In this document: piece after piece, positions 2,901 to 31,185 of the stretch
Layout: each line of letters opens with the position of its first letter
Position numbering within the stretch: position 1 is the first letter of the stretch
Assembly (NCBI GenBank): GCA_041675165.1
Contig: JBAYUI010000002.1
Coordinates: 376 to 64,375 of the forward strand
Length of the DNA stretch: 64,000 bases
Origin: Parcubacteria group bacterium
GTDB taxonomy: Bacteria; Patescibacteriota; Minisyncoccia; Moranbacterales; UBA2206
Direction: 5' to 3'
Notes under the pieces: generated by a model
What the model saw: only the letters and a program-made list of their open reading frames with translations
What the model was told of the DNA's origin: nothing
The model's database searches: none
Position numbers and translations under genes: made by a program

Positions 2901-3208
2901 TGAAAGCGGAATCAATCTAGTTAATTTGATATAAGACAGGTCTATGAAAAGCAAGACCAATCTTTTAGTCGAACTTAACAAAAAGCACGCGGAAATTTTT
3001 TGCTCTCAAAAAATCGGATATATGAACTCTATGGCAGTGGTGGTCGATCAGAACACGATGAAAATGGAAACGGTGGAATAGGAAAAGTAATCCACAGGTT
3101 GACAAATCCAGCCAGGAGAGTAGGATAGTATTTGTTGAAACTTAATATATCTTTTATTTTAACTTCGGGTAATTCCGTTTTTTTGTTTGTTTTAGGGACG
3201 TTATTGTT

Positions 3209-3751
3209 ATGAAAATTTTTAAATTGCTGGACACTTTATTTTTGGGAAAAAAAGTCACTGAAAAAAGAGGTGATTTTTTTCCGACTGAAAGGGATTTTGA
3301 ATTTGAGGAAGTCGGTCAGGAAGTGAAAGAAATTATAAATAATTTGTACGGTGGCCGGTCATTGCATATCCGAGCGGTGGATGCCGGCTCAAATAATGCG
3401 GAAGAGATCGAACTTACCGCGCTCACCAATGCCTATTATGACATTGACCGCTTCGGCTTGAATTTCGTAGCTTCGCCGCGGCACGCCGATATGCTTTTTG
3501 TCACGGGACCGGTGACACGTAATTTGGAAAGAGCTTTGCTCACGACTTATGAAGCCGCGCCGCATCCAGTGATCGTAGCGGCGGTCGGTGACGGCGCGAT
3601 CGATGGCGGAATTTGGAAGGATTCTTATGCCGTGGTCGGCGGAGTGGACAAAGTCATTCCGGTGCACGTTTGCATTCCCGGCGATCCGCCGACGCCGACA
3701 GAGATCCTGCGCGGAGTGCTGGCGGCTCTCCAAAATCATAAAATCAAATAA
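3209..3751 (+). CDS. NuoB / [NiFe]-hydrogenase small-subunit homolog lacking all four [4Fe-4S] cysteine ligands (Ehr-type small subunit)
   Basis: Aligns with NuoB: ASPRHADMLFVTGPVT, VDKVIPVHVCIPGDPPTP. The CC motif, GSCxxxGG and GCPP are replaced by AG/S, GDGAIDGG and GDPP. Confidence 0.85.
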   Translation: MKIFKLLDTLFLGKKVTEKRGDFFPTERDFEFEEVGQEVKEIINNLYGGRSLHIRAVDAGSNNAEEIELTALTNAYYDIDRFGLNFVASPRHADMLFVTGPVTRNLERALLTTYEAAPHPVIVAAVGDGAIDGGIWKDSYAVVGGVDKVIPVHVCIPGDPPTPTEILRGVLAALQNHKIK

Positions 3752-3754
3752 TCT

Positions 3755-5749
3755 ATGTTGGAAAAATATATCCTAATCGGTATGGGGGTTTATTTTTGCG
3801 GACTGGCTTTGTCCGCCGTTTTGGCGTTCTTCGGCCAGTCATTTAAGAAGGGGGCATATCTTTTTATCTTTTCCAATGTGGTCGGTTTTTTGTCCGCCCT
3901 TGGATATTTTCTGAATAACGCTGGTGATAATTTCAGCTTGGCTCATTTTGATTGGTTTTTCCAATTCGCGCCGAGACTTGATTTTTTGTCGGCTATTTTT
4001 TTCCTAGTCATCAGTGGTGTTTCTGTTTTAGTAGGTGTCTATAGTTTGCGTTATTTGGAATTATATAAGGAAGAATATGATCCGCGGATGGTGCAATTTT
4101 TGATGGCTTTTTTTGTCCTAGGGATGCAAGGCGTTCTGATCGCCAATAACACTTTCGCTTTCTTATTTTTCTGGGAAGTGATGTCAATCACTTCTTTCTT
4201 CTTGGTCTTTTCGGATAGGAAGCATGAATCGATCAAAGCAGCGTTTTTATACTTCATTATGACGCATTTGGGCGCGTCAGCCATTTTGGGAGGTTTTTTG
4301 ATCTTGGGCGGCGGATCATTTTCATATGACCTTAGCCATATCCGCAGTGCCTCGGAAAATCTTTCTCCGGCCATGGCCGCTTTGGCGTTTTTGCTTTTTG
4401 TTTTCGGTTTCGGGTCGAAAGCGGGGCTGGTGCCGTTCCACATATGGCTGCCGGAGGCGCATCCGCAAGCCCCGAGCAACATTTCGGCGATGATGAGCGG
4501 TTTGATGTTGAAAATTGCCGTGTATGGGTTCATTATGGTTAGTCTGGGTATGGCGCGTATTCCCAGCTGGGCGGGATTGGTCGTCCTGTCACTGGGTCTT
4601 CTCTCCGGCGTAGTCGGGGCGTTATATGCCGCGGTGGAAAGGGATATGAAAAAAGCTTTGGCTTATAGTAGTATCGAAAATATGGGAATCATTTTCATCA
4701 TGCTGGGCTTGGCCGTTTATCTTTCGGTTTTCGGAAAATATCAAGCCATCGTTTATGCTCTTTTTGCCTTTGCCATTTTTCACGCTGTGAGTCACGCATT
4801 GTTCAAGACCGCGCTTTTTCTCAGCAGTGGAATAGTTATTAGCAGGGTGCATACTAAAAGTTTGGAGATGATGGGCGGCCTAGCCAAACTGATGCCGATT
4901 TTCAGCTTGGCTTTCCTTCTGGCCATTTTAGGATCCTTGCCTTTGCCATTGTTCGCGACTTTCTATGGCGAGTGGGGGCTCATCCAAAATATCATATTAC
5001 TTCTGGGTGAAAAAAGTCTGGGGGCGGGAACCATAGTGATGCTTCTGGCCATCCTGTCCGCGGTGGCGATGGTGAGCGGGTTGGCGATATTTGCGATGAT
5101 AAAGGTTTTCAGCTTATCTATGCTGGGCTTGCCGCATAACACTCATATGGAAAAAAGGGAAGAGAAGGCGGACGGTCTTTTGATCGCGCCTGTTCTATGC
5201 TTGGGCGCGGGCGTGGTGGCCTTGGGAATTTTTGCCAAATTTTTCATTACTGATATTGCAACGCATATTCAAACGGCGGCAACTGGCGCGGTTCCTGCAG
5301 CTAGCTTGCCACTGATGAACATATCTTCCTTGGCCGTCAGTGGTGCAATCATACTTTTCAGTTTGGCGGTGTATGCTATGCAAAAAATCGTTCTGACTAA
5401 TGACAAGGAAAGATTTTATCATACTTGGGATTGTGGGCAAGCAATCGACGTGACAATGCAATACAGTGCTACGGCTTTTTCTGCGCCTATCAGATTTTTT
5501 TTCCTGACTTTCATCGGCCGCCGGAAAGTGATGCAATCGGAAGCGATTGTAGGGACGAATCCGTGGATCAGAAAATATAATTTCCGCCTGTCTATCCGTC
5601 CGAGTTGGAATGATGTTTTGTATGCTCCGATTGCGAAAAGTTTGCTCAGCGCGGCGAAAAAAATCCGTTGCATCCAAAACGGGCGCATCCAATATTATAT
5701 CTTATTCTTGCTTTTGGCTCTAACTATCACTCTAATTTTTGCTTTATGA
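3755..5749 (+). CDS. Complex-I antiporter-like membrane subunit (NuoL / HyfB / MrpA family)
   Basis: 664 aa polytopic. Conserved WLPEAHPQAPSNISAMMSGLMLKIAVYG motif of NuoL/M/N-MrpA/D. Confidence 0.85.
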   Translation: MLEKYILIGMGVYFCGLALSAVLAFFGQSFKKGAYLFIFSNVVGFLSALGYFLNNAGDNFSLAHFDWFFQFAPRLDFLSAIFFLVISGVSVLVGVYSLRYLELYKEEYDPRMVQFLMAFFVLGMQGVLIANNTFAFLFFWEVMSITSFFLVFSDRKHESIKAAFLYFIMTHLGASAILGGFLILGGGSFSYDLSHIRSASENLSPAMAALAFLLFVFGFGSKAGLVPFHIWLPEAHPQAPSNISAMMSGLMLKIAVYGFIMVSLGMARIPSWAGLVVLSLGLLSGVVGALYAAVERDMKKALAYSSIENMGIIFIMLGLAVYLSVFGKYQAIVYALFAFAIFHAVSHALFKTALFLSSGIVISRVHTKSLEMMGGLAKLMPIFSLAFLLAILGSLPLPLFATFYGEWGLIQNIILLLGEKSLGAGTIVMLLAILSAVAMVSGLAIFAMIKVFSLSMLGLPHNTHMEKREEKADGLLIAPVLCLGAGVVALGIFAKFFITDIATHIQTAATGAVPAASLPLMNISSLAVSGAIILFSLAVYAMQKIVLTNDKERFYHTWDCGQAIDVTMQYSATAFSAPIRFFFLTFIGRRKVMQSEAIVGTNPWIRKYNFRLSIRPSWNDVLYAPIAKSLLSAAKKIRCIQNGRIQYYILFLLLALTITLIFAL

Positions 5750-7341
5750 ATCCGATAATCGCCACTCTGATCCAAATCGTTTTTGTCCTAGCTATCGCGC
5801 CATATGCCACGGGTCTGGTGAAATTTTTAAAGGCGCGTTTGCAAGGCCGAGATGGCGCTTCGCCTTTTTTGTCCTATGTCACTGTGGCGACGCTGCTCAA
5901 AAAAGAAATGGTGATATCTGAAACGGTTTCGTGGATATGGCGCGCGGTGCCGTTCGTTGTTTTCGGCAGTGTGGTTTTTTTGGCGGCTATCGTCCCGCTT
6001 GTTTTTACAGGCGCCGCGTTGGCATCACTCAGTGATTTTTTGGTGGTGGCGGGGGTGTTGGCAGTCGGCTCAATCTTTTTGGTACTAGGCGGATTGGATG
6101 CGGGCAGCGCTTTTGGCGGGATGGGATCCAGCCGGGAAATGACTATTGCGGCGCTCATCGAGCCGGTCGTCATTATGATTTTTGCCACTGTCAGTTTCAT
6201 TACTAAACAATCCACGCTGGATGGTATGTTGGGCGCGCAAGTCGGATTCCAGCCATATCTGATTTTGACTGTTATTGCCCTTGTCTTGGTGGCTTTGGCG
6301 GAAAACGCGCGCTATCCTGTGGATAATCCGGCCACCCATTTGGAGCTGACCATGGTGCATGAAGCGATGATATTGGAATATAGCGGAAAATATTTAGCCC
6401 TTTTGGAATACGCGTATTCCATAAAGCTAGTGGTTTTTTCATTGCTCATCGCTAATTTTATCTTCCCGATGTCACTGGTCGGGGCGCACACAATGGGAAT
6501 GGGGGCGTTGGGAATGGGACTTTTGCTCAGCACCGCAAAGGTCATTTCAGCGATGATGGGTCTGGCTTTTCTCGAATCGGTTATGGCCAAGATGCGGTTC
6601 TATCGGATGTCGGAATATTTCTCTATCGCATATGTCGTGGCATTTTTAGGAATGATCACGGCACTCCTTATGAATTTCGGAGAAATGTCCTTGCAATACA
6701 ACGCGCTCTTTTCTCTTTTGGCGGTGGTGTGCGTAGTGCTCCTCTTTGGGCGAGTGCGTTTGAAAGCGATTTTGCGTTATTATGCATTTTCTTCTTTGGC
6801 CATCGCGGCCTTGGCTCTGAGTCTGCTTCCATTGGTGGCGGAAGAGGAAAGGGCGCATCTGTGGCTGTTTGCTATTTTCACTATCATCACGAAAACAATG
6901 GCTGTGCCGTATGTCATCAATCGATCGAGCCATGCCAAAAGGAGCCTGACAAATCTGCCCTCTTTTCTCCGTCCGGGAAAAAGCTATTTTTTGGCTGTTT
7001 TTCTTATGATCCTGACCTATTTCACTTTGCGGAACATTTCTATTACGGGCTTGGTCAAATGGAACTCACTGCTATATGCTTCGGTGACACTGATAGTTTT
7101 GGGGATTACGATGATGATCATCAAGCGCAATATTTTTTCTCAGATTGTGGGACTGCTCATCATTGAAAACGGCATCGCGGTTTTTGTTCTGGCCACGGTC
7201 GGTTCCCTTCCGATTGTCATCGAATTTGGAATTTTCGCGGTGACGGTGGCGACTGCGTATATTTTAGCGATATTGAGTTCACAGATCAGTCAGCTGTATG
7301 GCAGCACGGACACGGATGATCTGCGCGGACTGACGGAATAA
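5746..7341 (+). CDS. HycD/HyfC (NuoH-like) membrane subunit fused to a HyfE/NuoK-like C-terminal domain
   Basis: N-terminal ~330 aa align with HycD (LDAGSAFGGMGSSREMTIAALIEP, EAMILEYSGKYL). The C-terminal ~200 aa are a separate polytopic domain (LIIENGIAVFVL). The ATGA overlaps the upstream stop. Confidence 0.75.
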   Translation: MNPIIATLIQIVFVLAIAPYATGLVKFLKARLQGRDGASPFLSYVTVATLLKKEMVISETVSWIWRAVPFVVFGSVVFLAAIVPLVFTGAALASLSDFLVVAGVLAVGSIFLVLGGLDAGSAFGGMGSSREMTIAALIEPVVIMIFATVSFITKQSTLDGMLGAQVGFQPYLILTVIALVLVALAENARYPVDNPATHLELTMVHEAMILEYSGKYLALLEYAYSIKLVVFSLLIANFIFPMSLVGAHTMGMGALGMGLLLSTAKVISAMMGLAFLESVMAKMRFYRMSEYFSIAYVVAFLGMITALLMNFGEMSLQYNALFSLLAVVCVVLLFGRVRLKAILRYYAFSSLAIAALALSLLPLVAEEERAHLWLFAIFTIITKTMAVPYVINRSSHAKRSLTNLPSFLRPGKSYFLAVFLMILTYFTLRNISITGLVKWNSLLYASVTLIVLGITMMIIKRNIFSQIVGLLIIENGIAVFVLATVGSLPIVIEFGIFAVTVATAYILAILSSQISQLYGSTDTDDLRGLTE

Positions 7342-7366
7342 TATATTTTTCTTAATCTAATTTTTT

Positions 7367-8866
7367 ATGAATCCGATTTTTCTAGCCATTCCATCCATCT
7401 TAGCGACTGTTTGGACGATGGCGTCAAAGAACGAAAAAACCGCGCGCTTGGGCAACTTGTCCTTTTCCTTGTTCGGTTTTTTGGCGATGATTTTTTATGC
7501 GGTGCCATTCCTTTTCAGTTTTGAAAGAGGCTTTCTGAACGCGTGGCTGCGGATGGATAGTTTTTCAGCGCTTATGACTGTGCTCATCGCGTGTGTCTAT
7601 ATCTTCGCTTCGATCATCAGTGTGCGTTATATCGGGCATGAATATGCGGAGAAAATCATTACATTTTTGCAGTATAAGATGTATTTCGCGCTTTTCCATC
7701 TGTTTACCTTGTGTATGTTGGTAGCGGTTTTGGCCAACAACGTCCTTCTTCTTTGGTTGGCTTTGGAAGGGACGACGCTTTTTTCCACTTTTCTAGTGGG
7801 GCTCTATCGTCGAAAAACCAGCATGGAAGCGGCGTGGAAATATATGATCCTTTGTTCGACGGGTATCAGCTTAGGTCTTTTGGGTATTTTGCTTTTGAGT
7901 TATGGTGCGCATGTGGGTGGAGTGATGGAAGGCAATATTTTTCTTTTGGACAAATTAGCGGAAAATGCCGCGGTCATTCCGGCCAATATCGTTAAACTGG
8001 CGTTCGTTTTCCTGTTTATCGGTTTTGGCACTAAGGTCGGATTGGCGCCGATGCATACTTGGCTGCCGGATGCGCACAGCAAAGCGCCGTCACCCATCTC
8101 GGCCATTTTTTCCGCCGTGCTTTTGAATGTTGCACTCTATGCCATTTTGCGTTTCAAATTCATCACTGACAGCGCTTTTCTGGGATCTTCTTGGACCAAT
8201 CATTTGTTTTTGATTTTTGGATTTTTTTCAGTGGTGCTGAGTGCGCTTATGATGCTTATCCAAGTCAATTATAAAAGAATGCTGGCCTATTCCAGCATTG
8301 AACATATGGGTCTCATGCTTTTTTCGTTAGGCATGCCGCCGCTCGGAGCAGTGGCGGCGGTGATGCATATGATCGCTCACACTTTCACCAAATCAGCTTT
8401 GTTTTTCGGGGCGGGCGAAATTTTGATCCGTTGGAAAACCACTAAGATCTCCAAGATAAAAAATATGTTTGCCGAAGCGAAATATACCAGTATCCTATTT
8501 TTGACCGGTATCGTGGCGATCGTGGCGATCCCGCCGTCAGCAATGTTTGTCAGTGAATACGCGATGTTTTCGCAAGCGATCATCCAACATCCGCTGGTGG
8601 CCATCTTGCTCTTCATTGCTCTGGGTATCATCGCGTATGCGATGCTGTCACTCAGCATGGAAATGATTTTTACGACTGACGAGGAAGGGGCAAAAGAAGT
8701 GACCCGCCTACGCTCTACGAGCTCCGGCGCGGCAAGGGAGCGTTGGAATGTGACACATACGATAATGACGGTCGAATTGGCTACAGTGGTGTTCTTGGCT
8801 TGGTGGTTCACGACGCCTATGGCGATGAAGGTGATCGGCAATATCGTGAAAACTTTTATTTATTAA
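7367..8866 (+). CDS. Complex-I antiporter-like membrane subunit (NuoN/M / HyfF / MrpD family)
   Basis: 499 aa. WLPDAHSKAPSPISAIFSAVLLNVALYAILRF motif. Confidence 0.85.
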   Translation: MNPIFLAIPSILATVWTMASKNEKTARLGNLSFSLFGFLAMIFYAVPFLFSFERGFLNAWLRMDSFSALMTVLIACVYIFASIISVRYIGHEYAEKIITFLQYKMYFALFHLFTLCMLVAVLANNVLLLWLALEGTTLFSTFLVGLYRRKTSMEAAWKYMILCSTGISLGLLGILLLSYGAHVGGVMEGNIFLLDKLAENAAVIPANIVKLAFVFLFIGFGTKVGLAPMHTWLPDAHSKAPSPISAIFSAVLLNVALYAILRFKFITDSAFLGSSWTNHLFLIFGFFSVVLSALMMLIQVNYKRMLAYSSIEHMGLMLFSLGMPPLGAVAAVMHMIAHTFTKSALFFGAGEILIRWKTTKISKIKNMFAEAKYTSILFLTGIVAIVAIPPSAMFVSEYAMFSQAIIQHPLVAILLFIALGIIAYAMLSLSMEMIFTTDEEGAKEVTRLRSTSSGAARERWNVTHTIMTVELATVVFLAWWFTTPMAMKVIGNIVKTFIY

Positions 8867-8885
8867 TTGGTTTTGAAAAGGGCTT

Positions 8886-10448
8886 ATGAATATTCAAGAA
8901 ATTATCAAAAAATTTGGAGAAGAGCTGATACCGAGAGCGGAAAAAAATGATTTGATAGAGGTTCAGGCTTCGCGTGAGGATCTGGCCAAAGTGGCGACAG
9001 TGCTTTTCAAAGAACATGGATTTCCGTTATCGCATATGTTCGGTACGGATGATCGGAGAGAAAGCGACAGCTTTGGAGTGCACGTTGTTTTCAGCATTCC
9101 TGCCGAAAAGAAATGGTTGAAAATTTCAGCCGAAATTCCGGCTTCGGATCCGCAATACCCGTCGCTTACCAGAACTATCATGGCCGCCCATTGGTATGAA
9201 AGATATTTGCGCGATATGTTCGGCGTGACGCCCATGGGTCATCCGGATCTGCGCCGTTTGGTGCATCATGAAAACATACCGGAAGACACTCATCCGTTAT
9301 GCAAGGATTTTTTGTGGAACACGAAACTGAAAAAAGACAGCGTGCCTTATCCGATGCATCACGTAACAGGCGAAGGAATTTTTGAGATTCCCGTCGGACC
9401 GATCCATGCCGGCATCATCGAACCGGGACATTTTCGCTTCAATGTGGCGGGGGAAAGAATCTTGACTTTGGAAGGTAAATTATTCTTCACGCATAAGGGC
9501 GTGGAAAAATTGGTGGAAGGCAAAAATATCTTAGAGACTTTGCCGTTCATCGAAAGGATTTCGGGCGATGCCGCGGCTTCGTATGCTTTGGCCTATTCTC
9601 AGGCGGTGGAAAAAATCTGCGATTGCGCGGTGCCGCGCCGCGCCCTTCAACTGCGCGCTATTTTGACTGAGTGTGAACGGATCACGATGCATATCCATGA
9701 CTTGGCCAATATCGGCGGAATGGGCACGGGCTACAGTTTCATCGTGGCCAATGGATGGCGCATCAAAGAAAGAATGATGCGTCTGTCACAAGACATCTGT
9801 GGCAATCGGTTTTGGCGGGGAATGATCGTGCCTGGTGGAGTCAAATATGATATTGTCGAAACAGATTTGAAAAAAATATTAAGCGTGTCGGAAGCGGCGT
9901 GGAGAGAAATGGAAAAAATCACTATCATCGCGCTCGACAGCGAAGGCTTTTTGGATCGCTTGCAGTATACGGGGGAATTGTCTAAAGAGGCGGCCGAAGC
10001 TTTTGGCGCGGTCGGACCCGCGGCGCGGGCGTCCAAGATCAATCGCGATGTCCGGCGTGATCACCCGTATGCTTCCTACGGAGAATTTCCAATTAAAGTG
10101 ATAACCAAAAAAAGCAAAGATGTTTTCGCGCGTTACCGGATGCGGACCAAGGAGATTGAACAATCAATAGTCCTGATTAAGACTCTGGTAGAAAAAATGG
10201 AGGAAGGGAATATTATTGAGAAATGTGAAACGCGCGATGGTTTTGCTCTCGGTGCCGTGGAATCTTGGCGCGGAGAACTTCTGTGCGCTTTGCAGATCAA
10301 AAATGGCGTGATTGGTCGGTGCGCTCCACGTGATCCATCTTTTTGCAATTGGGCGCTTTTTGGCATCATGGGTCCCGGCAACATCGTGCCGGATTTTCCG
10401 CTCATCAATAAGAGTTTGAATCTGTCTTATTCCGGGACGGATCTGTAA
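8886..10448 (+). CDS. NuoC-NuoD fusion / HycE-like large subunit without [NiFe]-binding cysteines (Ehr-type large subunit)
   Basis: N-terminal NuoC-like 30-kDa domain plus NuoD/large-subunit domain (GPIHAGIIEPGHFRF, HKGVEKL). The L1 motif RxCGxC reads RISGDAAAS. The C-terminal DPCxxC reads SLNLSYSGTDL. Confidence 0.85.
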   Translation: MNIQEIIKKFGEELIPRAEKNDLIEVQASREDLAKVATVLFKEHGFPLSHMFGTDDRRESDSFGVHVVFSIPAEKKWLKISAEIPASDPQYPSLTRTIMAAHWYERYLRDMFGVTPMGHPDLRRLVHHENIPEDTHPLCKDFLWNTKLKKDSVPYPMHHVTGEGIFEIPVGPIHAGIIEPGHFRFNVAGERILTLEGKLFFTHKGVEKLVEGKNILETLPFIERISGDAAASYALAYSQAVEKICDCAVPRRALQLRAILTECERITMHIHDLANIGGMGTGYSFIVANGWRIKERMMRLSQDICGNRFWRGMIVPGGVKYDIVETDLKKILSVSEAAWREMEKITIIALDSEGFLDRLQYTGELSKEAAEAFGAVGPAARASKINRDVRRDHPYASYGEFPIKVITKKSKDVFARYRMRTKEIEQSIVLIKTLVEKMEEGNIIEKCETRDGFALGAVESWRGELLCALQIKNGVIGRCAPRDPSFCNWALFGIMGPGNIVPDFPLINKSLNLSYSGTDL

Positions 10449-10604: not shown

Positions 10605-13577
10605 ATGGAAGAAAACGCCAAATATAACCCGAAGGAAATTGAGGCCAAATGGCAGAAGTTTTGGCTTGAAAAAGGCGATTCTAAGATAGATAAAGACGAT
10701 GAAACCAAGAAGAAATTCTATATTTTAGACATGTTTCCCTATCCGTCCGGCAGTGGGCTGCATATGGGACACACGGAGAGTTATACGGCCAGCGATGTGG
10801 TTTATCGCTATAAAAAACTGCAGGGGTTTAATGTGCTTCATCCGCAAGGCTTTGATGCTTTCGGGCTGCCGGCGGAAAATTATGCCATTAAGACCGGCAT
10901 TTCTCCGGTGGAAACGACCAAGGCAAACATGGCCAATTATATCCGGCAGATGCAGTCACTCGGTTTTGCCTATGATTTTTCCGAAGCCGCGGTCACGTGC
11001 GATCCGGAATATTATAAATGGACGCAATGGATCTTCGGGGAATTTTTCAAAAACGGATTAGTATATAAAAAGACAGCCAAGACCAACTGGTGTTCTTCTT
11101 GTCAAACAGTGATTGCCAATGAACAAGTGTTGGATGGCAAATGTGAACGCTGCGGAACGGAAATTGAACAAAGAGCTGTACCGAGCTGGTTTTTCAAGAT
11201 CACGGATTTTGCCGAAGAACTAATTGGGGGATTGGACAAAGTTGATTGGCCGGAATATACCAAAAAGAATCAGAAAAATTGGATCGGAAAAAGTGAAGGA
11301 GTGACCGTTTCATTTGAAATAAAAATTTCAAATGAAAACGGAATTTCCAATTTCCAATTTCCAATTTCCAATAAAATCCAAAATCAAAATGATAAAAACC
11401 AAAAACAATTTATTGAGGTTTTTACCACCAGAATAGACACAATATATGGCGTGACTTATTTAGTTTTGGCACCGGAGCATGGGCTAGTTCAGGAACTGAA
11501 AAACGAGATCAAGAATTTTTCTGAAGTTGAAAAATATATTGAGCAAGCCAAAAACAAGACAGAGCTGAGCCGGATGGAGGCCAAAGAAAAAACAGGCGTG
11601 GAATTGCAAGGCATTAAGGCTATTAATCCATTTAATAATAAAGAAGTGCCGATTTTCATCGCGGACTATGTTTTGGCGCAATATGGCACGGGAGCAGTGA
11701 TGGCCGTGCCGGCTCATGATGAACGAGATTTTGAGTTTGCGAAGAGATATGATTTGGAAATCAAGGCAGTAATCGCCGTTGATGATTCTAATAGTTCTAT
11801 TTCTGTGGCAGTTTTAAGTTTCGCTAAAAAAATCGCGCAATATGCTTCAGAGAAAAAGATACTCGCAGTTTTCGATGGCGGAATTGGTTTGGATATTGCG
11901 TTTGGAAAAATTACCAGAAATCATGACGATATAGATTTACAAGTAGAAAGTGGTGAGCTTGATAAGTGGATAAAATATTTAGAAGAGGAAAATTTTAAAG
12001 TAAAAAAAAATCCTGATAAAAGATTTGATATTTATACGGCTGATAATGGTATTTTCCATATAGACTTCGGATGCTATATCGATCTGGATAAAAATAAAAA
12101 TGATAAGGATTATCTTATAAGAAATGTTATTGATGAGATTGAATTTGCAACTTTTAAACCAGGGGAAATATTAGAGTATAAAATTTCTGAAATAAAAAGA
12201 TTGGGAATCAAGAGACAAAAAGACTCGCATGATTTAGCCTTGCATAGCATGGAGGCTTTTGTGGAAGACGGATTTCTTATAAATTCCAGTGAGTATTCTG
12301 GATTATCTTCCAAAAATGCGCGGGAAAAAATGGCCGAATGGTTGGAAGAAAAAAAGCTTGGTGAAAAAATAACAAATTATCGTTTGCGGGACTGGTCCAT
12401 TTCTAGGCAGAGGTATTGGGGCTGTCCGATCCCGATCGTCTATTCTCCGGACGGGGAGGCGCATCTGGTTCCGGAGGAACATCTGCCGTGGAAATTGCCG
12501 ATGGACGTCGATTTTGTGCCGACCGGCACTTCGCCTTTGGCCAAGTCCGAGGAGCTGAAAAAACGGACGCAAGATTTTTTTGGTGCTGGCTGGACAGCGG
12601 AATATGACACCATGGACACCTTCGTTGATTCTTCGTGGTATTTCTTGCGTTATCCGGATGCGCACAACGACAAAGAATTTTGTTCCAAGGAGCGATTGAA
12701 AAAATGGTTGCCGGTGGACGTCTATATCGGTGGCGCGGAGCACACTTATATGCATCTGCTTTTCGCCAGGTTTTTTGTGAAAGCCATGCATCGGATCGGC
12801 CTTTTGGATTTCGATGAACCGTTTTTGAAGTTGCGCCATCAAGGGATGGTTTTGGACAAGGAAGGCAAGAAAATGTCCAAATCAAAGGGCAATGTCATCA
12901 ATCCGGACGAAATGGTGGAAAAATTCGGCGCTGACTCAGTGCGAGCGTATATGCTTTTCGCAGCGCCCTTGGAAGATGCTGTGATGTGGAATGAGGATAA
13001 TATTATTGGGGTGAGGAGGTTTTTGGAGAAAGTTTGGAAAATACAATATAAAATTACAAATGACAAATTGCAAATTTCAAATAAAGCTCAAAATCCAAAT
13101 GACCAAAATAAAAAACTAAATTCGCTGATACATAAAACCATTAAGAAAGTTGGAGAAGATATTGAAAACTTTAGATTTAATACGGCAGTGAGCCAGCTTA
13201 TGATACTCGTGAACGAGATGGAAAAACAAGAAGAATTAAGCATTACTGATTACGAATTATTGATTATTCTTCTTGCTCCATTTGCTCCACACATTGCCGA
13301 AGAAATTTTCCAAGAAGTTCTGGGTCACAAGGAATCGATATTTTTGCAGAAGTGGCCGGAGTTTTCTGAAACACTGACCAAGGATGAAGAGATCAATTTG
13401 GTGTTGCAAGTGAATGGCAAGGTGCGGGATATGGTGGCAGTGAGCGCAGATATATCAGAAGAAGAAGCGAAAGAAATCGCCTTGGTGAGTGAAAAAATCA
13501 AAAAGCATATTGCTGATAAAGAAATCAAGAAAATTATTTTTGTGAAAGGGAAGTTGGTTAATATCGTTGTAATGTAA
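10605..13577 (+). CDS. leuS: Leucyl-tRNA synthetase with an inserted nucleotidyltransferase domain and low-complexity inserts
   Basis: HMGH, KMSKS, editing-domain motifs TTRIDT and AVPAHDERD. 990 aa. Nucleotides 11760-12300 encode an ANT(2'')-like domain (GGIGLDIAFGKITRNHDDIDL). Confidence 0.95.
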   Translation: MEENAKYNPKEIEAKWQKFWLEKGDSKIDKDDETKKKFYILDMFPYPSGSGLHMGHTESYTASDVVYRYKKLQGFNVLHPQGFDAFGLPAENYAIKTGISPVETTKANMANYIRQMQSLGFAYDFSEAAVTCDPEYYKWTQWIFGEFFKNGLVYKKTAKTNWCSSCQTVIANEQVLDGKCERCGTEIEQRAVPSWFFKITDFAEELIGGLDKVDWPEYTKKNQKNWIGKSEGVTVSFEIKISNENGISNFQFPISNKIQNQNDKNQKQFIEVFTTRIDTIYGVTYLVLAPEHGLVQELKNEIKNFSEVEKYIEQAKNKTELSRMEAKEKTGVELQGIKAINPFNNKEVPIFIADYVLAQYGTGAVMAVPAHDERDFEFAKRYDLEIKAVIAVDDSNSSISVAVLSFAKKIAQYASEKKILAVFDGGIGLDIAFGKITRNHDDIDLQVESGELDKWIKYLEEENFKVKKNPDKRFDIYTADNGIFHIDFGCYIDLDKNKNDKDYLIRNVIDEIEFATFKPGEILEYKISEIKRLGIKRQKDSHDLALHSMEAFVEDGFLINSSEYSGLSSKNAREKMAEWLEEKKLGEKITNYRLRDWSISRQRYWGCPIPIVYSPDGEAHLVPEEHLPWKLPMDVDFVPTGTSPLAKSEELKKRTQDFFGAGWTAEYDTMDTFVDSSWYFLRYPDAHNDKEFCSKERLKKWLPVDVYIGGAEHTYMHLLFARFFVKAMHRIGLLDFDEPFLKLRHQGMVLDKEGKKMSKSKGNVINPDEMVEKFGADSVRAYMLFAAPLEDAVMWNEDNIIGVRRFLEKVWKIQYKITNDKLQISNKAQNPNDQNKKLNSLIHKTIKKVGEDIENFRFNTAVSQLMILVNEMEKQEELSITDYELLIILLAPFAPHIAEEIFQEVLGHKESIFLQKWPEFSETLTKDEEINLVLQVNGKVRDMVAVSADISEEEAKEIALVSEKIKKHIADKEIKKIIFVKGKLVNIVVM

Positions 13578-14412: not shown

Positions 14413-14805
14413 ATGGATATCCGCGCTATTAAAAATGATCGCTTCTATTTTTGGACCAATCACGCCAAATACAAACTTTTGCAATATGGTTTTAGTCCGA
14501 CGGCCATTAAGAATGTCATCCGCCGGCCGGAGAGGACGGAAGAGGGCATTGCGCCCGAAACGATAGCGGTAATGCGGAGGAAGGATGCCAAGAAAACGAA
14601 ACGGGAAATCTGGGTGATGTATCAAAAAGTTAAAAAGGAAAAGTTTCCGCCAAAGGCGGATCAGTCTATGGCTGAAAAAGATAAAAGTGGCGGAAAAATT
14701 AAAATTATCAGCGCCTGGATCTATCCCGGAGTGAGTCCGACGGATAAGGAAATTTTTGTGCCGGAGGACGTGTGGGAGGCGCTCGGAGAATGCGTAAGTC
14801 AATAA
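14413..14805 (+). CDS. Hypothetical protein
   Basis: 130-aa ORF with coding-like composition. No family recognised. Confidence 0.4.
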   Translation: MDIRAIKNDRFYFWTNHAKYKLLQYGFSPTAIKNVIRRPERTEEGIAPETIAVMRRKDAKKTKREIWVMYQKVKKEKFPPKADQSMAEKDKSGGKIKIISAWIYPGVSPTDKEIFVPEDVWEALGECVSQ

Positions 14806-16280
14806 AACAAAAAATGGAAAACAAAAATATCGAAAAAATATCTCAAGAAAAGTTTTTTACCCTCTCTGAATTTCGCCATCGCGTCGGTATTCCTCTAATT
14901 ATGGCGAAAAAGTTGGTGATATGGGGCGAAGTGCGCGCGGTGCGGGCACTGGATGGCACTTGGCTCATCGCGGAAACAGAAGTGGTTAAAATCGCAAGAA
15001 TCATCAAAAATCCTTGGAAGAAGGCGTATTATTTTTTCCGTGCCTTGGGCCCTGGGGTGATTACGGGGGCCTCAGATGATGATCCGAGCGGCATTGGGAC
15101 TTATTCTTCCGTGGGAGCGCAATTCGGACTCGGACTTTTATGGATGGCGGCTTGGATCTTGCCGATGATGATGGCCATCCAGGAGGCGTGCGCGCGGATT
15201 GGGATCGTCACTAATCGGGGCTTGGCCGGAGTCCTGCAGAAGCACTATCATCGCAAAGTGATGGTTGGCATCGTGTCCATTCTTATCCTGGCCAATGTGA
15301 TAAACATCGGAGCGGATATCGGGGCGATGGCCAAATCTTTGCAGATGCTCATCAATATAAATTTTTATCTGGCAGCAATCGCGTTTGCGGCGATGATTAT
15401 CCTGCTGGAAGTTTTTGTTGGTTATCATACATATGTCAAAATTTTGAAGTGGCTGACGATTTCTGTCCTGGCTTATGTGGTGACGGGAATCATCATCAAA
15501 CCCGATTGGAATGCGATTCTGGCGGCGGCCGTTGTTCCTGAAATGCATTTTAATCGGGAATATCTTTTCGCTATCATTGCTGTGTTTGGGACAAGTATCA
15601 CGCCGTATCTGTTTTTTTGGCAGACTTCCGAAGAAGTGGAAGAGAACAAGAAGGATAAAAAACTATTCCGTAGCCTGCATCAGAAAGACGATCGTACGAT
15701 TGTGAATCGGATTGCCAAGATGCGCACAGACGTGGAAACCGGCATGGTTCTGGCCAATGTCGTTTTCTTTTTCATCATTGTGACCACCGCCCAAGTCTTG
15801 TTCAAAAACGGAATTTTCAATATTGATTCGGCAGAGCAAGCGGCGTTGGCGCTCAGGCCGTTGGCCGGTGATTATGCTTATCTGCTTTTCGCTCTCGGCA
15901 TCATCGGAACGGGACTTCTGGCGGTGCCGATCTTGGCCGGTTCAGGAGCTTATGCCTTGTCTGAAATTATGAAATGGCACGAAGGCTTGGAAGAAAAATT
16001 TTCCCGCGCCAAAGGATTCTATCTGGTCATCATAGTTTCCATCTTGGTCGGACTGGCTCTGAACTTTTTCCACATCAATCCGATTGCCGCTTTATACTAT
16101 TCAGCTTTCCTTAATGGCGTGATTTCTTTGCCGCTTCTGGCGGCCATTATGATCGTGAGCGATGACAAAAAGATAATGGGGCGCGAAACCAATCCTCTCT
16201 GGGTCAGGATTTTTGGCTGGTTGGCGGTGGTTTTCATCACGGGGATGATCATTTTGGCGGGCGTACTTTATTTCATCTGA
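14790..16280 (+). CDS. mntH: NRAMP/MntH-family divalent metal transporter with an N-terminal HTH-like extension
   Basis: GPGVITGASDDDPSGIGTYSSVGAQFGLGLLWMAAW signature. ~90-aa N-terminal extension (LSEFRHRVGIPLIMAKKLVIWGEV) resembles an excisionase/MerR-type HTH. Start codon uncertain (14772, 14790 or 14814). Confidence 0.8.
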   Translation: MRKSIKQKMENKNIEKISQEKFFTLSEFRHRVGIPLIMAKKLVIWGEVRAVRALDGTWLIAETEVVKIARIIKNPWKKAYYFFRALGPGVITGASDDDPSGIGTYSSVGAQFGLGLLWMAAWILPMMMAIQEACARIGIVTNRGLAGVLQKHYHRKVMVGIVSILILANVINIGADIGAMAKSLQMLININFYLAAIAFAAMIILLEVFVGYHTYVKILKWLTISVLAYVVTGIIIKPDWNAILAAAVVPEMHFNREYLFAIIAVFGTSITPYLFFWQTSEEVEENKKDKKLFRSLHQKDDRTIVNRIAKMRTDVETGMVLANVVFFFIIVTTAQVLFKNGIFNIDSAEQAALALRPLAGDYAYLLFALGIIGTGLLAVPILAGSGAYALSEIMKWHEGLEEKFSRAKGFYLVIIVSILVGLALNFFHINPIAALYYSAFLNGVISLPLLAAIMIVSDDKKIMGRETNPLWVRIFGWLAVVFITGMIILAGVLYFI

Positions 16281-17459: not shown

Positions 17460-19385
17460 ATGAAAAAAAATAAATCAAAAAAAATATTAGACTCGATCAA
17501 TTTTCCGGCTGACCTGAGAAAATTGCCAAAAGAAAAGTTGTCCGAGCTGTGCAAAGAAGTGCGGCAGTTTTTGATCGATAGTGTGGCGGTGACGGGCGGG
17601 CATTTCGGCTCGAATTTGGGCGTGGTGGAGCTGACCGTGGCTTTGCATTATGTTTTTGAAACGCCGCAAGATAAATTGATCTGGGACGTTGGGCATCAGA
17701 GTTATCCGCATAAGATCCTGACTGGAAGAAAAGACAAAATGACGACGATCCGTAAATTTGGCGGGCTGGCACCTTTTCCCCGAAGGGAAGAAAGCGAATA
17801 TGACACTTTCAATGTGGGGCACTCCAGCACTTCTATCGGGGCGGCCGCCGGTATGGCGCTAGCCGAGCGTGACAAAAAAAATCCGGCGCAAATCGTGGCT
17901 ATCATTGGGGATGGGGCGCTGACTGGCGGGATGGCTTTGGAAGCGCTGAACCACGCGGGCGATGCGGCATCTGATATGCTGGTGATTCTGAATGACAATA
18001 AGATGTCCATTTCGCCGAACGTCGGGGCGATGGGTCAATATCTGACGCGACTCATTTCCTCGCCAGCTTACGTGAATACGCGTGCCAAGGGGCGGGAATT
18101 TTTTGATGCCGCGCCGCGCCTTAAAAGGATCCTGATGCGCGCCGAATCGCACACCAAAGGTATGATAGTGCCCGGCACGCTGTTCGAAGAATTGGGTTTT
18201 GAATATTATGGTCCGATCGATGGACACGATGTTTTGTCTTTGGTGGAAGTGCTTGAGAATTTGAAAAAAATCAAAGGGCCGAAATTTTTGCATATCTTGA
18301 CCAAAAAAGGCAAGGGCTATGCTCCCGCTGAAAATGACCGTTTGTCTTTTCATGCGGTGAAACCGTTTGATCCCATAACAGGCAAAAATATTCCCGGCAA
18401 ACAAAAAAGCAGTAGCTATACAGATATTTTTTCACAGTGGATCTGTGACAAGGCCGCGAAGGAAAAAAATTTGCACGCCATCACACCGGCCATGTGCCAT
18501 GGTTCCGGTCTGGTTGAGTTCAAAGAAAAATTTCCCTCTCGCTATCATGATGTGGGCATCGCTGAACAGCACGCGCTCACTCTGGCCGCGGGACTGGCTG
18601 CGGCGGGGAAAAAACCGGTCGTGGCCATCTATTCATCTTTTTTGCAAAGAGCTTATGACCAACTCATCCATGACATTGCTCTCCAAAATTTGAACGTCCT
18701 TTTGGCGATCGACCGCGCCGGCATTGTCGGGCCGGACGGCGCCACACATGCCGGCAGTTTCGATCTGTCATTTCTGCGGGTCATTCCCAATCTCGTTATT
18801 ATGGCGCCGAGGAATATCAGTGAATGTCGCGCTATGCTGGAAGTTGGTTTTGATCATAAGGGGCCGGTGGCGGTGCGTTATCCGAGAGGCGGGGATGTTG
18901 TTTCTTTGCAACCCCAACTGCAACCACAACCCCTCCGCTCCGACGATTACGTCGGAGCACCTCCCCTGAGTACAGGGGAGGGGGAATCACTCAAAATGGA
19001 AATTGGCAAGGCGCAGGTTTTGCGTGCTGGAAGAAACATTGCCATCTTGGCGTTCGGGGCGATGGTGGAAAGATGCAAAGCAGTGGCTGAAAATTTGGAT
19101 GCTACTTTGATCAATATGCGGTTTGTGAAACCGTTGGATGAAAAATTGCTGGAAGAATTAGCCAAGACGCATAAATATTTCATCACCGTCGAAGACAACG
19201 CCGTTCTCGGCGGCGCCGGCAGTGCGGTGGCCGAGTTTGTGTTGAATAATAAACTTTCTATTTCCATCAAAAACCTTGGTCTGCCCGATGAATTTTTGCC
19301 GCACGGTACGCGGGAAGAAATTTTGGCTCTGGCTGGCCTTTCGGGGGAGGAGATTGAAAAGGCGGTGAGGCGGTTTGTGGGATAG
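17460..19385 (+). CDS. dxs: 1-deoxy-D-xylulose-5-phosphate synthase. Carries the same in-frame palindromic insertion
   Basis: GGHFGSNLGVVELTVALHYVF, DVGHQSYPHKILTGR, thiamine-PP motif GDGALTGG. Extra ~25 aa (QPQLQPQPLRSDDYVGAPPLSTGEGES) from the 18908-18985 element. Confidence 0.95.
   Translation: MKKNKSKKILDSINFPADLRKLPKEKLSELCKEVRQFLIDSVAVTGGHFGSNLGVVELTVALHYVFETPQDKLIWDVGHQSYPHKILTGRKDKMTTIRKFGGLAPFPRREESEYDTFNVGHSSTSIGAAAGMALAERDKKNPAQIVAIIGDGALTGGMALEALNHAGDAASDMLVILNDNKMSISPNVGAMGQYLTRLISSPAYVNTRAKGREFFDAAPRLKRILMRAESHTKGMIVPGTLFEELGFEYYGPIDGHDVLSLVEVLENLKKIKGPKFLHILTKKGKGYAPAENDRLSFHAVKPFDPITGKNIPGKQKSSSYTDIFSQWICDKAAKEKNLHAITPAMCHGSGLVEFKEKFPSRYHDVGIAEQHALTLAAGLAAAGKKPVVAIYSSFLQRAYDQLIHDIALQNLNVLLAIDRAGIVGPDGATHAGSFDLSFLRVIPNLVIMAPRNISECRAMLEVGFDHKGPVAVRYPRGGDVVSLQPQLQPQPLRSDDYVGAPPLSTGEGESLKMEIGKAQVLRAGRNIAILAFGAMVERCKAVAENLDATLINMRFVKPLDEKLLEELAKTHKYFITVEDNAVLGGAGSAVAEFVLNNKLSISIKNLGLPDEFLPHGTREEILALAGLSGEEIEKAVRRFVG
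18908..18985. repeat. Compound-hairpin element inserted in-frame in dxs (RPE-like), copy 2
   Basis: acaacccctccgctccgacgattacgtcggagcacctcccctgagtacaggggagggggaa. Hairpins ctccgacg-atta-cgtcggag and tcccctg-agta-cagggga. Confidence 0.8.
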
Positions 19386-19398
19386 AAAAAATATATTT

Positions 19399-19430
19399 AT
19401 AGAGGCTTCTACGGAGACCTCTATTTTGTT
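19399..19430 (+). terminator. Putative terminator after dxs
   Basis: tagagg...cctcta stem followed by ttttgtt. Confidence 0.4.
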
Positions 19431-19497
19431 ATCAGTAGGACTTGCATCTTTTTCACATAATGATATAATATCATTGAAATCATTTAAAACAAAAAAG

Positions 19498-20301
19498 ATG
19501 AAAAATATTTTTGAAGAGATAAAAAGAATCAATGAATATGGAAGTGAATATTGGTCGGCGCGGGAGCTGTCTAAGGCGCTTGATTATTTTGATTATCGTA
19601 ATTTTATAAAGGCCGTAGATAAGGCCAAAGAAGCTTGCAAAAATAGTGGAGAAGTTATCCACAACCATTTTGTTGATGCCAACGAAATGGTTGCAATTGG
19701 TTCTAGCGCAAAAAGACAGGTAGATACGATTTATTTGTCCCGCTATGCTTGCTATTTGATTATTCAAAATTCTGACCCATCTAAAGAAATTGTTGCTTTG
19801 GGGCAGACATATTTTGCGTTGCAAACTAGACGGCAAGAAAAGACTGATCAGTTGATAGAAGACAGCAAGCGGATCAATTTGCGCCAGGAAATGAAAAAGC
19901 ATAATACTTCTTTGGCAGAAGCGGCGACAAATGCCGGAGTGGAAAATTATGGCAAGTTCCAAAACTATGGCTATAAAGGATTGTATGGCGGGCTGGATGC
20001 CAATGATATCCATGAAAAGAAAAAATTGAAAAAATCACAAAAAATTTTGGATCACATGGGCAGTGAAGAATTGGCCGCAAATTTGTTCCGTGCTACGCAA
20101 GCTGATGCAAAATTACGTCGGGAAAAAATCCAAGGCGAGATGAATGCGAATCTGACGCATTACGCAGTCGGACAAAAAGTTCGGAAAACCATCGAAGAGT
20201 TGGGCGGCGAAATGCCCGAAGATCTGCCCAGCACTGATGGCATCTGCCAAGCCAAGACTCGCGTTAGGAAAATAGACCAGAAGAAGATAGTAGGAGAGTA
20301 A
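19498..20301 (+). CDS. dinD: DNA-damage-inducible protein D homolog
   Basis: Strong similarity to the DinD family: EEIKRINEYGSEYWSARELSKALDY, RYACYLIIQN, GQTYFALQTRRQE, AGVENYGKFQNYGYKGLYGG. Low-GC context. Confidence 0.8.
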   Translation: MKNIFEEIKRINEYGSEYWSARELSKALDYFDYRNFIKAVDKAKEACKNSGEVIHNHFVDANEMVAIGSSAKRQVDTIYLSRYACYLIIQNSDPSKEIVALGQTYFALQTRRQEKTDQLIEDSKRINLRQEMKKHNTSLAEAATNAGVENYGKFQNYGYKGLYGGLDANDIHEKKKLKKSQKILDHMGSEELAANLFRATQADAKLRREKIQGEMNANLTHYAVGQKVRKTIEELGGEMPEDLPSTDGICQAKTRVRKIDQKKIVGE

Positions 20302-20388
20302 AGATTAAAAAATATTACTTTTATTGCATTTTTGCCAATTTTTATTTAGTGGAGTATGCTGGAGGAGTTTAAAGTTGAGGAAAGGGGC

Positions 20389-20417
20389 TTGACGGTGCGG
20401 AGTTATTGATATATAAT
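20389..20417 (+). promoter_or_regulatory. Strong sigma70-type promoter upstream of the 493-aa nuclease-like ORF
   Basis: TTGACG, 17-nt spacer, TATAAT. Confidence 0.5.
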
Positions 20418-20547
20418 TTACGCATAAAAACAGAAACACAAAAGGAAAGAAGAAAAATTTACGATTTTTGTCCGACAGACTGAAAAAGGACCGAATCTTA
20501 AAATCAAATACGGGTGAGTTTGCTTTTAAAAAAGGAAATTAGAAAGT

Positions 20548-22029
20548 ATGCCGCGACAATGCGTAGTATATTTTCTGGTTTCCTTTTTTTGTGGCATTAT
20601 GGCAATTTTATTAAGTGAATATTTAGGAGTAGATGCAAAAACTTTAAAAAATAAAGGCGTGTTCGACATGGTTATAGGGATAGATACGAAACTCTTTATT
20701 GATCCTCTTTTATTCAAAAAATGTGGAATTGCAGAATTTGTAGATTCCCGAAAAAAAATAATATTATATTTTAAAAAAGTTGTATCTCTTATAAAATATT
20801 TTTCAAACGATAGGGCACGTGAAGCTGCCATTCAATTGCTTACCTTTCCGGAACCTAAGGGCGTATCAATTGGTTATGGTTCAGACAATGATGATGGAAA
20901 TGCGATTGGACCAAAACTTGCAAAGCGACTAGCTGAATCTGGTCGAGAGATTTACGAAATGGGGATAGAAGATCCAGAAATATTTGAATTATTAGGATTA
21001 TTTGAAGAAGATTTTGGTCCTGACAGACTAAGTGATATGATAATAAATATAGTGTTATCTGATTTTTTTCGATATACTGAAAGAATTTGCGATGAACTTA
21101 AAATTAAACATACTTATGAATTTTTCCATGAGGATCATGAATTTTATTTGCCTCAACATCCCGATAAGCATGGATATTTGATATTTATTCCTGAGAAATT
21201 TCTTAGAAATTTGCCCGTAGCTTCTTCATGGGAGGAGGTGTGCGAATCCGCTCGATTTAATCAGGAATTGAGGAATCGTTTGAACAAGATGATGGCGGGT
21301 GTATTTAAAGGAAGCCATAGTAAAACAACAAAAAAACAATTAAGAGAGATTATTTTTAATAATAAAAATAATGTAAAGGAGCTTCTGGATGTGTATAAGG
21401 AGCTTGATCCGAGTGCATATGATTTTTTAGCTGATGTCCAGGGACACGGATTGTGGTATCAGAAGGGGAAAGAGATATTCGAAAAATATTATGAGTCTGA
21501 AAAATGCGAGAAACCAAAAAACATATGCGACCTTGATTCGTTTGTAGTGCGCATGATCAATCAATATAAGAGGGCAATTGAGGAAGTGGGCGCGAATAAA
21601 ATTTTATACTCTTTTAAAAAAGACAAATTTCATCCACATCGAGAGGAAATTGCTCAGCTTGTATTCTTGATTGTTGCAGATCTGAATTGCCAAAAGCAAG
21701 GAGTGTTTCTCGCCAGAGAATCAAATTATGGGCATGGCCCAGTAGATTTCTCCTTGGGGATAGGATATGATGAAAAAATTTTGGTGGAAATTAAAAAAAG
21801 TTCTAACCCTAATCTAATAAAGGGTTATATGGCACAACTTCCTGATTATGAAAAAAGTGAACATTCTGCAAAAAGTTATTTCGTAGTTTTGATTGTTGAT
21901 GAAAATAAAGAAAAAATCAAAAGACTTCTATCTAAAAAAACAGAGGCTAATAAAGAAGGGAAGAAATCCCCTGATATTATACTTATAGATGCAACAATTA
22001 AACCGTCTCCTAGTAAGCTAAGAACTTAA
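20548..22029 (+). CDS. Large hypothetical protein with a C-terminal PD-(D/E)xK nuclease-like motif
   Basis: 493 aa, very AT-rich. C-terminal GHGPVDFSLGIGYDEKILVEIKKS fits a D...E-x-K restriction-endonuclease-like core. The N-terminal ~350 aa match no family. Start uncertain. Confidence 0.55.
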   Translation: MPRQCVVYFLVSFFCGIMAILLSEYLGVDAKTLKNKGVFDMVIGIDTKLFIDPLLFKKCGIAEFVDSRKKIILYFKKVVSLIKYFSNDRAREAAIQLLTFPEPKGVSIGYGSDNDDGNAIGPKLAKRLAESGREIYEMGIEDPEIFELLGLFEEDFGPDRLSDMIINIVLSDFFRYTERICDELKIKHTYEFFHEDHEFYLPQHPDKHGYLIFIPEKFLRNLPVASSWEEVCESARFNQELRNRLNKMMAGVFKGSHSKTTKKQLREIIFNNKNNVKELLDVYKELDPSAYDFLADVQGHGLWYQKGKEIFEKYYESEKCEKPKNICDLDSFVVRMINQYKRAIEEVGANKILYSFKKDKFHPHREEIAQLVFLIVADLNCQKQGVFLARESNYGHGPVDFSLGIGYDEKILVEIKKSSNPNLIKGYMAQLPDYEKSEHSAKSYFVVLIVDENKEKIKRLLSKKTEANKEGKKSPDIILIDATIKPSPSKLRT

Positions 22030-31020: not shown

Positions 31021-31185
31021 AACTCGGTAATACTCATACCACAGAAGATAAAGACTTTTTATTTTCTCAAATACCGCCGGCAGCTGGGGGGGGGGATTTA
31101 AAAGTTGAACTATTATTCACCCCGTTAGAAAACTGTTTGCTGAAAGTATTTTCTTTTTTATAATGCATAAATTTATAATTTACCA

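Follow-up and report, generated by a model that had tools for sequence, protein, structure and literature searches.

What can a complex-I-like membrane machine do once every ligand for its redox cofactors has been replaced? This question is raised by a five-gene module at positions 3209-10448 (forward strand) of a 64,000-nucleotide stretch of Parcubacteria DNA, the whole of which is called the window here. The module belongs with the energy-converting hydrogenase related (Ehr) family and lies directly downstream of the ATP synthase (atp) operon. All four cysteines of the [NiFe] site and all four of the [4Fe-4S] cluster are replaced in it. Judged by its motifs and its position in the tree, it is a derived Ehr variant, specific to the Candidate Phyla Radiation (CPR, Patescibacteria) and predicted to be completely cofactor-free. 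Bacteria of this group have F-type ATP synthases but no respiratory chain. The conserved atp-ehr array is a concrete and testable candidate for the missing partner of this ATPase, and thus bears on how membrane potential is built up and used in CPR cells.

The five-gene module and its replaced ligands

Pfam, NCBIfam and PDB matches agree with the gene content and order read by the first-pass annotation (a small subunit, a HyfB-like protein, a HycD+HyfE fusion, a HyfF-like protein and a NuoCD/HycE-like large subunit). The module and the two atp genes before it are laid out as follows:

952-2340, forward: atpD (F1 beta), end of the atp operon (PF00006, PF02874, PF22919)
2380-2832, forward: atpC (F1 epsilon), last atp gene (PF02823, PF00401)
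3209-3751, forward: ehrS, HycG/MbhJ/NuoB-like small subunit without any of the four [4Fe-4S] ligands (PF01058)
3755-5749, forward: ehrA/B, HyfB/NuoL/MrpA-like antiporter-type subunit with a long C-terminal extension (PF00361 and PF00662)
5746-7341, forward: ehrHE, fusion of a HycD/NuoH-like part (about amino acids 1-310) and a HyfE/NuoK-MrpC-like part (about amino acids 310-531) (PF00146 and PF00420)
7367-8866, forward: ehrF, HyfF/NuoN/MrpD-like antiporter-type subunit (PF00361)
8886-10448, forward: ehrL, fused NuoC-NuoD/HycE-like large subunit without either NiFe CxxC motif (PF00329 and PF00346)

The five ehr genes share one strand with spacings of -4 to 25 nt; a gap of 376 nt separates atpC from ehrS, and leuS is the next gene after ehrL. 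The start of ehrHE is placed at ATG 5746, in an ATGA overlap with the stop of ehrA/B; TTG 5668 was rejected in favour of this start. The NuoH-like and HyfE-like parts are encoded by separate genes in some related loci (L002, L003, L106 and L107). The top NCBIfam models for the module are HyfB, HyfE, HyfF, NuoB and NuoD. Every score lies under its curated cutoff (e.g. ehrA/B against HyfB NF005086, E = 1.9e-141; ehrF against HyfF NF005044, 2e-104; ehrHE against HyfE NF008556), which indicates a divergent family. The nearest homologues carry the names Parcubacteria group, Moranbacteria and Falkowbacteria, and the host is a very small, uncultured CPR bacterium of the Parcubacteria/Moranbacteria type and of groundwater type.

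Ligand positions were compared residue by residue in phmmer alignments against solved structures. Relative to Escherichia coli HycG (7z0s_G) and Pyrococcus furiosus MbhJ (6cfw_J), the CxxC pair of the small subunit has become N62/E65, the third ligand (GxC) is G129, and the fourth (PGCPP) reads PGD159PP. The CC pair of complex I (PSST/Nqo6) corresponds to A64/E65, and the N2 ligand set is absent. The whole protein holds one Cys, which is not conserved. The large subunit aligns with HycE (7z0s_E) over its full length (residues 23-519, E = 1.4e-72); here RVCGIC has become RIS226GDA229, and DPCYSC has become NLS514YSG517. The nickel-dependent hydrogenase model PF00374 accordingly falls below its cutoff on ehrL (21.3 bits against 25.8). 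At the positions of the quinone-binding residues of complex I (Tyr87 and His38, Thermus thermophilus Nqo4 numbering), the alignment gives Gly for Tyr87 and Ile for His38.

Partners of a redox enzyme were also sought. The ferredoxin motif CxxCxxCxxxC does not occur in any frame of the 64 kb window, and no Hyp maturation gene or endopeptidase was seen within the same 64 kb. NuoI, NuoA, NuoJ and NuoEFG were not found in the operon, which consists of the five genes only.

With the eight metal ligands and the quinone-site Tyr and His gone, the complex is neither a [NiFe] hydrogenase nor an NADH:quinone oxidoreductase, and both identities were rejected. The structure-based alignments thus bear out the first-pass annotation in its claims that the small subunit had lost all four N2 cysteines, that both [NiFe] CxxC motifs were gone from the large subunit, and that the module could be neither a hydrogenase nor an NADH dehydrogenase; the motif search does the same for the missing ferredoxin-like subunit. 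Judged from its sequence, a cap with no Ni-Fe, no Fe-S, no quinone residues and no ferredoxin-type partner leaves no redox reaction able to drive the complex.

The folds of both cap subunits are kept in AlphaFold2 models. The large-subunit model has a predicted TM-score (pTM) of 0.82, and its top fold match is 7z0s_E (TM-score 0.84). The small-subunit model has a mean per-residue confidence (pLDDT) of 83.7 and superimposes on MbhJ with a TM-score of 0.87 and a root-mean-square deviation of 1.7 Å.

The replaced positions are strongly conserved. Each cap subunit has more than 100 intact homologues at 60-89% identity. Across 21 large subunits, S226, G227, D228, S514, Y515, S516 and G517 are invariant, and so is the whole beta1-beta2 loop (E167-V187). 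The His that other Ehr have downstream of the SGD motif (RxSGD....H) is replaced by Tyr in the ehrL of the window. Across 121 small-subunit homologues, position 62 is Thr, Ser or Asn, E65 and G129 are each present in 100%, D159 is present in 90% (otherwise mostly Asn), and D128 is present in 98%; no conserved set of four Cys is found among them. Against the nearest relative (L086), the ratio of nonsynonymous to synonymous substitution rates (dN/dS) of the five ehr genes, in their order, is 0.076, 0.080, 0.071, 0.112 and 0.079, compared with 0.077 for atpC and 0.111 for leuS. The five genes are under strong purifying selection and are neither a relic nor an artefact. Intact homologues, invariant substitutions and housekeeping-like dN/dS together mark functional genes that show no decay. 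The first-pass annotation had allowed for sequencing errors, frameshifts or pseudogenes as explanations; these do not survive the finding of the same substitutions in more than 100 assemblies and of five intact open reading frames (ORFs).

Alignment shows that the charged residues by which complex I, membrane-bound hydrogenase (MBH) and Mrp translocate protons or cations are retained in the membrane arm. The ehrA/B product aligns with HycC, MbhH and MrpA and has the Glu of transmembrane helix 5 (TM5), the Lys of TM7 and TM8 and the Glu of TM12. The ehrF product has Glu in TM5, Lys in TM7 and Glu in TM12, with Asn at the position of the TM8 Lys. The NuoH-like half of ehrHE aligns with HycD and MbhM and shares with HycD both the acidic cluster and the SRE/EP motifs of the loop, and the HyfE-like half has an MrpC-type membrane Glu. 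Homologues of MrpB, E, F and G were not detected in the module with Pfam or NCBIfam.

Position within the Ehr family

Placement was based on 80 GTDB loci, mostly non-CPR and taken among the matches listed, together with 150 clustered representatives. A neighbour-joining (NJ) tree was built from 229 sequences and bootstrapped with 107; the analysis is distance-based, with no maximum-likelihood tree. True NiFe enzymes, which keep all four Cys of the large subunit (CCCC), split from all others with 96% NJ bootstrap. The CPR clade of the window (clade A) has 100% NJ bootstrap and is placed among Ehr, outside the bona fide group-4 hydrogenases.

The large-subunit motifs RxSGD....H and LSYSG are common to the Ehr of Nitrospirota, Acidobacteriota, Rokubacteria, Actinomycetes, Thiobacillus, Thaumarchaeota, Methanomassiliicoccales and others, so that their conservation spans bacterial and archaeal Ehr. 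Their presence in so many phyla makes the large-subunit substitutions a hallmark of the Ehr family and not a peculiarity of the window. The small subunit follows another pattern. Among the loci listed, the four Cys are retained in nearly all non-CPR Ehr sampled, and complete loss of the Fe-S ligands, apart from the archaeal pattern given below, is confined to clade A and one further locus (L021). The first-pass statement that the module matches the Ehr type is therefore right as to tree grouping and large-subunit motifs; it is incomplete in that nearly all other sampled Ehr keep their small-subunit Cys.

Loss of the Fe-S ligands is found elsewhere in the family too. A second, separately supported CPR-associated clade (L011 from Daviesbacteria, L015 and L017) shows partial loss (T/D, C, D/G, D). 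In Methanosarcinales (L055, 11511-12023; L077, 11335-11844), all four Cys have been lost with other replacements (D, T/P, D, N), and no atp genes lie nearby. Asp, Glu or Asn stand in for the lost Cys in each such lineage. Monophyly of the two CPR-associated clades was rejected: they are joined in only 4% of bootstrap replicates, so the loss of Fe-S ligands was probably recurrent. The distribution shows this loss in at least two or three separate Ehr lineages (clade A, the second CPR-associated clade and Methanosarcinales).

Part of this picture is already published. CPR Ehr with large subunits devoid of metal-binding Cys have been described as a monophyletic clade, and it was concluded that they are likely unable to interact with H2 (Jaffe et al. 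2020, PMC7304191). Neither the small subunit nor the gene neighbourhood of this clade is treated in the text of that paper (Jaffe et al. 2020). For the loss of small-subunit Fe-S ligands and for adjacency to atp genes, no description was found in the searchable literature, the coverage of which is incomplete.

Three further loci in the sample deserve mention in their own right. In a Chloroflexota metagenome-assembled genome (L048, 8600-12280), a large subunit with the four NiFe Cys goes together with a small subunit in which only a single cluster Cys is left out of four (E, C, E, D), a combination that is odd for a working hydrogenase. In Nitrospirota (L012 and L060), two complete Ehr clusters of different subclades stand in tandem on the same strand.

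Linkage to the ATP synthase operon

The first-pass annotation had also proposed a functional link to the F-type ATPase, and gene order conserved in many relatives backs it. Synteny within clade A was surveyed in relatives, through metagenome loci and four individual contigs, and was counted where enough upstream sequence was present; neither the large subunit of the window nor its identical database copy (P0001) had an entry in the contig index. Of 18 distinct clade-A loci, about 14 have atpD-atpC immediately before ehr on the same strand, with gaps between atpC and ehr that are mostly 70-506 nt and in three cases 0.9-2.1 kb. Two loci (L116 and L117) show the full order atpI-B-E-F-H-A-G-D-C followed by ehrS-B-HE-F-L. 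Their outer flanks differ, so that only atp and ehr travel together. By comparison, none of 67 loci that encode a true hydrogenase or an Ehr with its Cys has an atp gene within 10 kb (Fisher p = 1e-12, with no correction for relatedness).

One junction in the second CPR-associated clade was discounted. In L014, a masked run of N (about 2110-2215) lies between atpC and a truncated ehrS; the atp-adjacency tally is 16 of 23 with this locus and 15 of 22 without it. A different arrangement is seen in L011 (2983-20765 of a 1.1 Mb contig of Candidatus Daviesbacteria). Here the atp operon is split on one strand, with atpA-G-D about 13 kb from atpC, and a distant Ehr lies on the opposite strand between atpD and atpC together with several genes without a Pfam match.

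The coupling ion of the ATPase can be predicted from its c subunit. Gln32 and Ser/Thr66 make up the Na+ motif of the Ilyobacter tartaricus c-ring. In the c subunits of two relatives, Ile and Ala stand at the equivalent positions and the Na+ motif is gone; without the Gln and Ser/Thr of a Na+ site, H+ coupling is predicted.

The spacer between atpC and ehrS holds two candidate signals:

2866-2900, forward: hairpin formed by two adjacent copies of the 15-nt palindrome GGAGGCTWAGCCTCC (15-bp stem, no U tract)
3099-3126, forward: promoter-like TTGACA-N16-TAGGAT (10 of 12 matches)

The hairpin begins 33 nt after atpC and has a predicted energy of -32.3 kcal/mol, which does not fit the "weak hairpins" first read here. 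It occurs once in the window and is not conserved in relatives. The putative promoter of the first-pass annotation fares differently according to the evidence used. By itself it is not above chance, but both the element and the leader downstream of it are conserved in L081 and L086. This leader of about 80 nt (window 3127-3208; L081 4147-4267; L086 781-923) is highly conserved among the three genomes and contains ...TATTTTAACTTCGGGTAATTCCGTTTTTTTGTTTG...; its conservation exceeds what is expected of a plain spacer. Rfam gave nothing credible for the spacer.

Several other genes of the window are worth recording. An Nramp-family divalent-metal/proton transporter gene (14772-16280) follows ehr at a distance of 4 kb. 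L081 has this gene too, and its absence from L117 and L083 means that its proximity to ehr is probably coincidental. The leuS gene (10605-13577) encodes 990 amino acids compared with 860 in L081, and a long form of 977 amino acids is found in L087. The insert (about amino acids 400-540) follows the editing domain and gives a weak match at amino acids 410-490 to PF10706 (aminoglycoside-2''-adenylyltransferase-like nucleotidyltransferase). At 30715-32229, a reverse transcriptase gene (RVT_1, 31186-32229, forward) adjoins a small ORF on the opposite strand (30715-31020), the product of which is presumably similar to the four-helix-bundle/Avd-like proteins encoded by diversity-generating retroelements. 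A search of the 27-34 kb part of the window for template/variable repeats found no pair of at least 40 nt. The region 19375-22029 encodes a protein with the phage-associated BRO-N domain, followed by a 493-amino-acid ORF without a Pfam match. The GC content of this region is the lowest in the window (0.35 compared with about 0.45), and it may be mobile DNA.

Possible functions and known relatives

The favoured reading, which is given about an even chance of being right, is that the module encodes a redox-inert, Mrp-like cation/proton translocator or gated proton path that is paired with an H+-type F1Fo ATPase. The five products would probably assemble into a small L-shaped membrane complex resembling complex I and formate hydrogenlyase (FHL). 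Its membrane arm would contain two antiporter-like subunits, one NuoH-like and one HyfE/NuoK-like subunit, with the NuoB-NuoCD-like cap above. Such a complex could act as a secondary exchanger or gated path, working in series with the proton-type ATPase encoded next to it. A fermentative cell without a respiratory chain would use this ATPase to hydrolyse ATP and set up a proton gradient, which the Ehr module might convert or balance (e.g. by expelling Na+ or keeping pH stable). A role in structure or gating would be the reason for retaining the cap, and the carboxylates E65 and D159, beside the older D128, would occupy the former cluster site.

A number of points weigh against this reading. 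Firstly, ehr is probably transcribed from a promoter of its own, and atpC is followed by a hairpin of -32 kcal/mol, so that the association with atp rests on synteny and not on co-transcription. The synteny counts are themselves phylogenetically non-independent, and four related loci (L083 and the basal group of L002, L003 and L110) lack atp adjacency. Secondly, the Na+ path proposed for Mrp and MBH is formed in part by MrpB, E, F and G, so Na+/H+ exchange is not guaranteed in a module without them, and a proton-only device without energy input would merely leak. Thirdly, a strongly constrained cap is not obviously needed by a pure antiporter. The invariant pocket and beta1-beta2 loop, with motifs common to cluster-containing Ehr, hint at further chemistry or a ligand at this site. 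Finally, the literature up to 2023 assigns no function to any Ehr.

The cap is the basis of an alternative of modest weight, in which the complex is still an enzyme. The SGD and SYSG pocket of the large subunit, which all Ehr have in common, would bind a substrate or a metal held without Cys, and a non-redox or directly coupled reaction would drive ion pumping in the way that the active site of complex I or MBH does. In the CPR clade neither the residues of this pocket nor the coupling beta1-beta2 loop vary, RxSGD....H and LSYSG are kept across bacterial and archaeal Ehr, and the cap genes are as constrained as the membrane genes (dN/dS 0.076 and 0.079). E65, D128 and D159 also converge at the old cluster site, on a geometry taken from homology, and could hold a cation there. 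However, no gene for a substrate, partner enzyme or cofactor synthesis is conserved beside the cluster, only atp. Other Ehr keep the Fe-S cluster, which implies a need for electrons that the clade of the window cannot deliver, and the window protein has Tyr in place of the His that follows SGD.

The gene order can be read in another way. The module may serve the ATP synthase as an accessory and not transport ions in its own right, although this appears unlikely. It might let protons return or leak under regulation, sense pH or the proton-motive force, or bind F1Fo and tune the direction in which it runs in cells that lack a respiratory chain. In favour of this are the conserved atp-ehr arrays with their varying outer flanks, the distant Ehr placed between atpD and atpC of L011, and the lack of any energy source for pumping. 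Against it, ehr lies away from atp in L083, L002, L003 and L110, contact with F1Fo has no sequence evidence, and a five-subunit machine of 2,400 residues would be a costly regulator in a reduced genome.

Complex-I coupling might also run in reverse and free of redox chemistry, an idea that is considered improbable. The proton gradient made by the ATPase would drive the arm, and the conformation of the cap and of the NuoH cavity would change in response. This change would perform work of a non-redox kind, such as binding, gating or moving a ligand. The ligand could be a cation or a hydrophobic molecule from the membrane, either of which might be useful to a scavenging episymbiont. If true, complex-I-type machines would gain a new functional class, and the coupling of complex I could be studied in a natural minimal model.

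It is very improbable that the module is a redox enzyme that still moves electrons through an Fe-S cluster or metal held by Asp, Glu or Thr. Carboxylates are conserved at two of the four ligand positions, and single Asp or Glu ligands to [4Fe-4S] clusters occur in other proteins. In the module, however, no Cys is left at the ligand positions and one position is Gly; we know of no [4Fe-4S] cluster without any Cys ligand. Moreover, there is neither an electron-input subunit nor an acceptor site. A decaying hydrogenase remnant, as might be expected of reduced CPR genomes that shed pathways, or ligand loss through sequencing or frameshift artefacts has practically no probability and is refuted by the conservation data: five intact ORFs with overlapping or closely spaced starts, the same substitutions in over 100 independent assemblies, and dN/dS values (0.07-0.11) equal to those of housekeeping genes.

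The translocator reading can be set against the systems already known. Named Ehr members include EhrA-S of Geobacter, those of Nitrospira, ammonia-oxidising archaea, Margulisbacteria and Elusimicrobia, and the CPR clade (Jaffe et al. 2020). The module shares with them the subunit set, the replacement of CxxC by RxSGD....H/LSYSG-type motifs and its place in the tree. It departs from them in that it has no small-subunit Fe-S Cys, which nearly all non-CPR Ehr sampled keep, that its NuoH-like and HyfE-like parts are fused, that it lies beside the atp operon, and that no formate dehydrogenase or NuoEF-type partner is found nearby in the window. With its conserved pocket, it would offer a handle on what that pocket does in Ehr.

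E. coli FHL/hydrogenase-4 (7Z0S) provides the best matches in sequence and fold to each of the subunits (HycE 1.4e-72, HycG 2.6e-28, HycC 1.3e-46 and HycD 1.1e-26), and the NuoC and NuoD domains are fused in ehrL as they are there. In contrast to FHL, the module is without the NiFe and Fe-S ligands, the ferredoxin subunits (HycB, HycF, HyfA and HyfH) and FdhF, and its small-subunit gene comes first in the module and last in FHL. Mrp (Mnh/Pha) is a parallel in the proposed mode of action, since it is redox-independent and shares MrpA/MrpD-type subunits with TM5 Glu and TM7 Lys and a MrpC/NuoK-type Glu. Unlike Mrp, the module has a NuoH-like subunit and a NuoB-NuoCD-like cap, and it does without MrpB, E, F and G.

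Complex I (Nuo/Nqo) and the P. furiosus complexes MBH and MBS differ from the module in what it has given up, namely the N2 cluster, the quinone Tyr/His, NuoI, NuoEFG and any NiFe or sulfur-reducing site. The core junction is common to them all, with homologues of NuoB, C, D, H and K and antiporter-like subunits, and the module retains the beta1-beta2 loop and the acidic residues of NuoH that are found in complex I and MBH. A naturally cofactor-free version of the complex I/FHL junction (NuoB, CD, H) with only two antiporter-like subunits, it would be a small system in which ion translocation and conformational coupling can be separated from redox chemistry.

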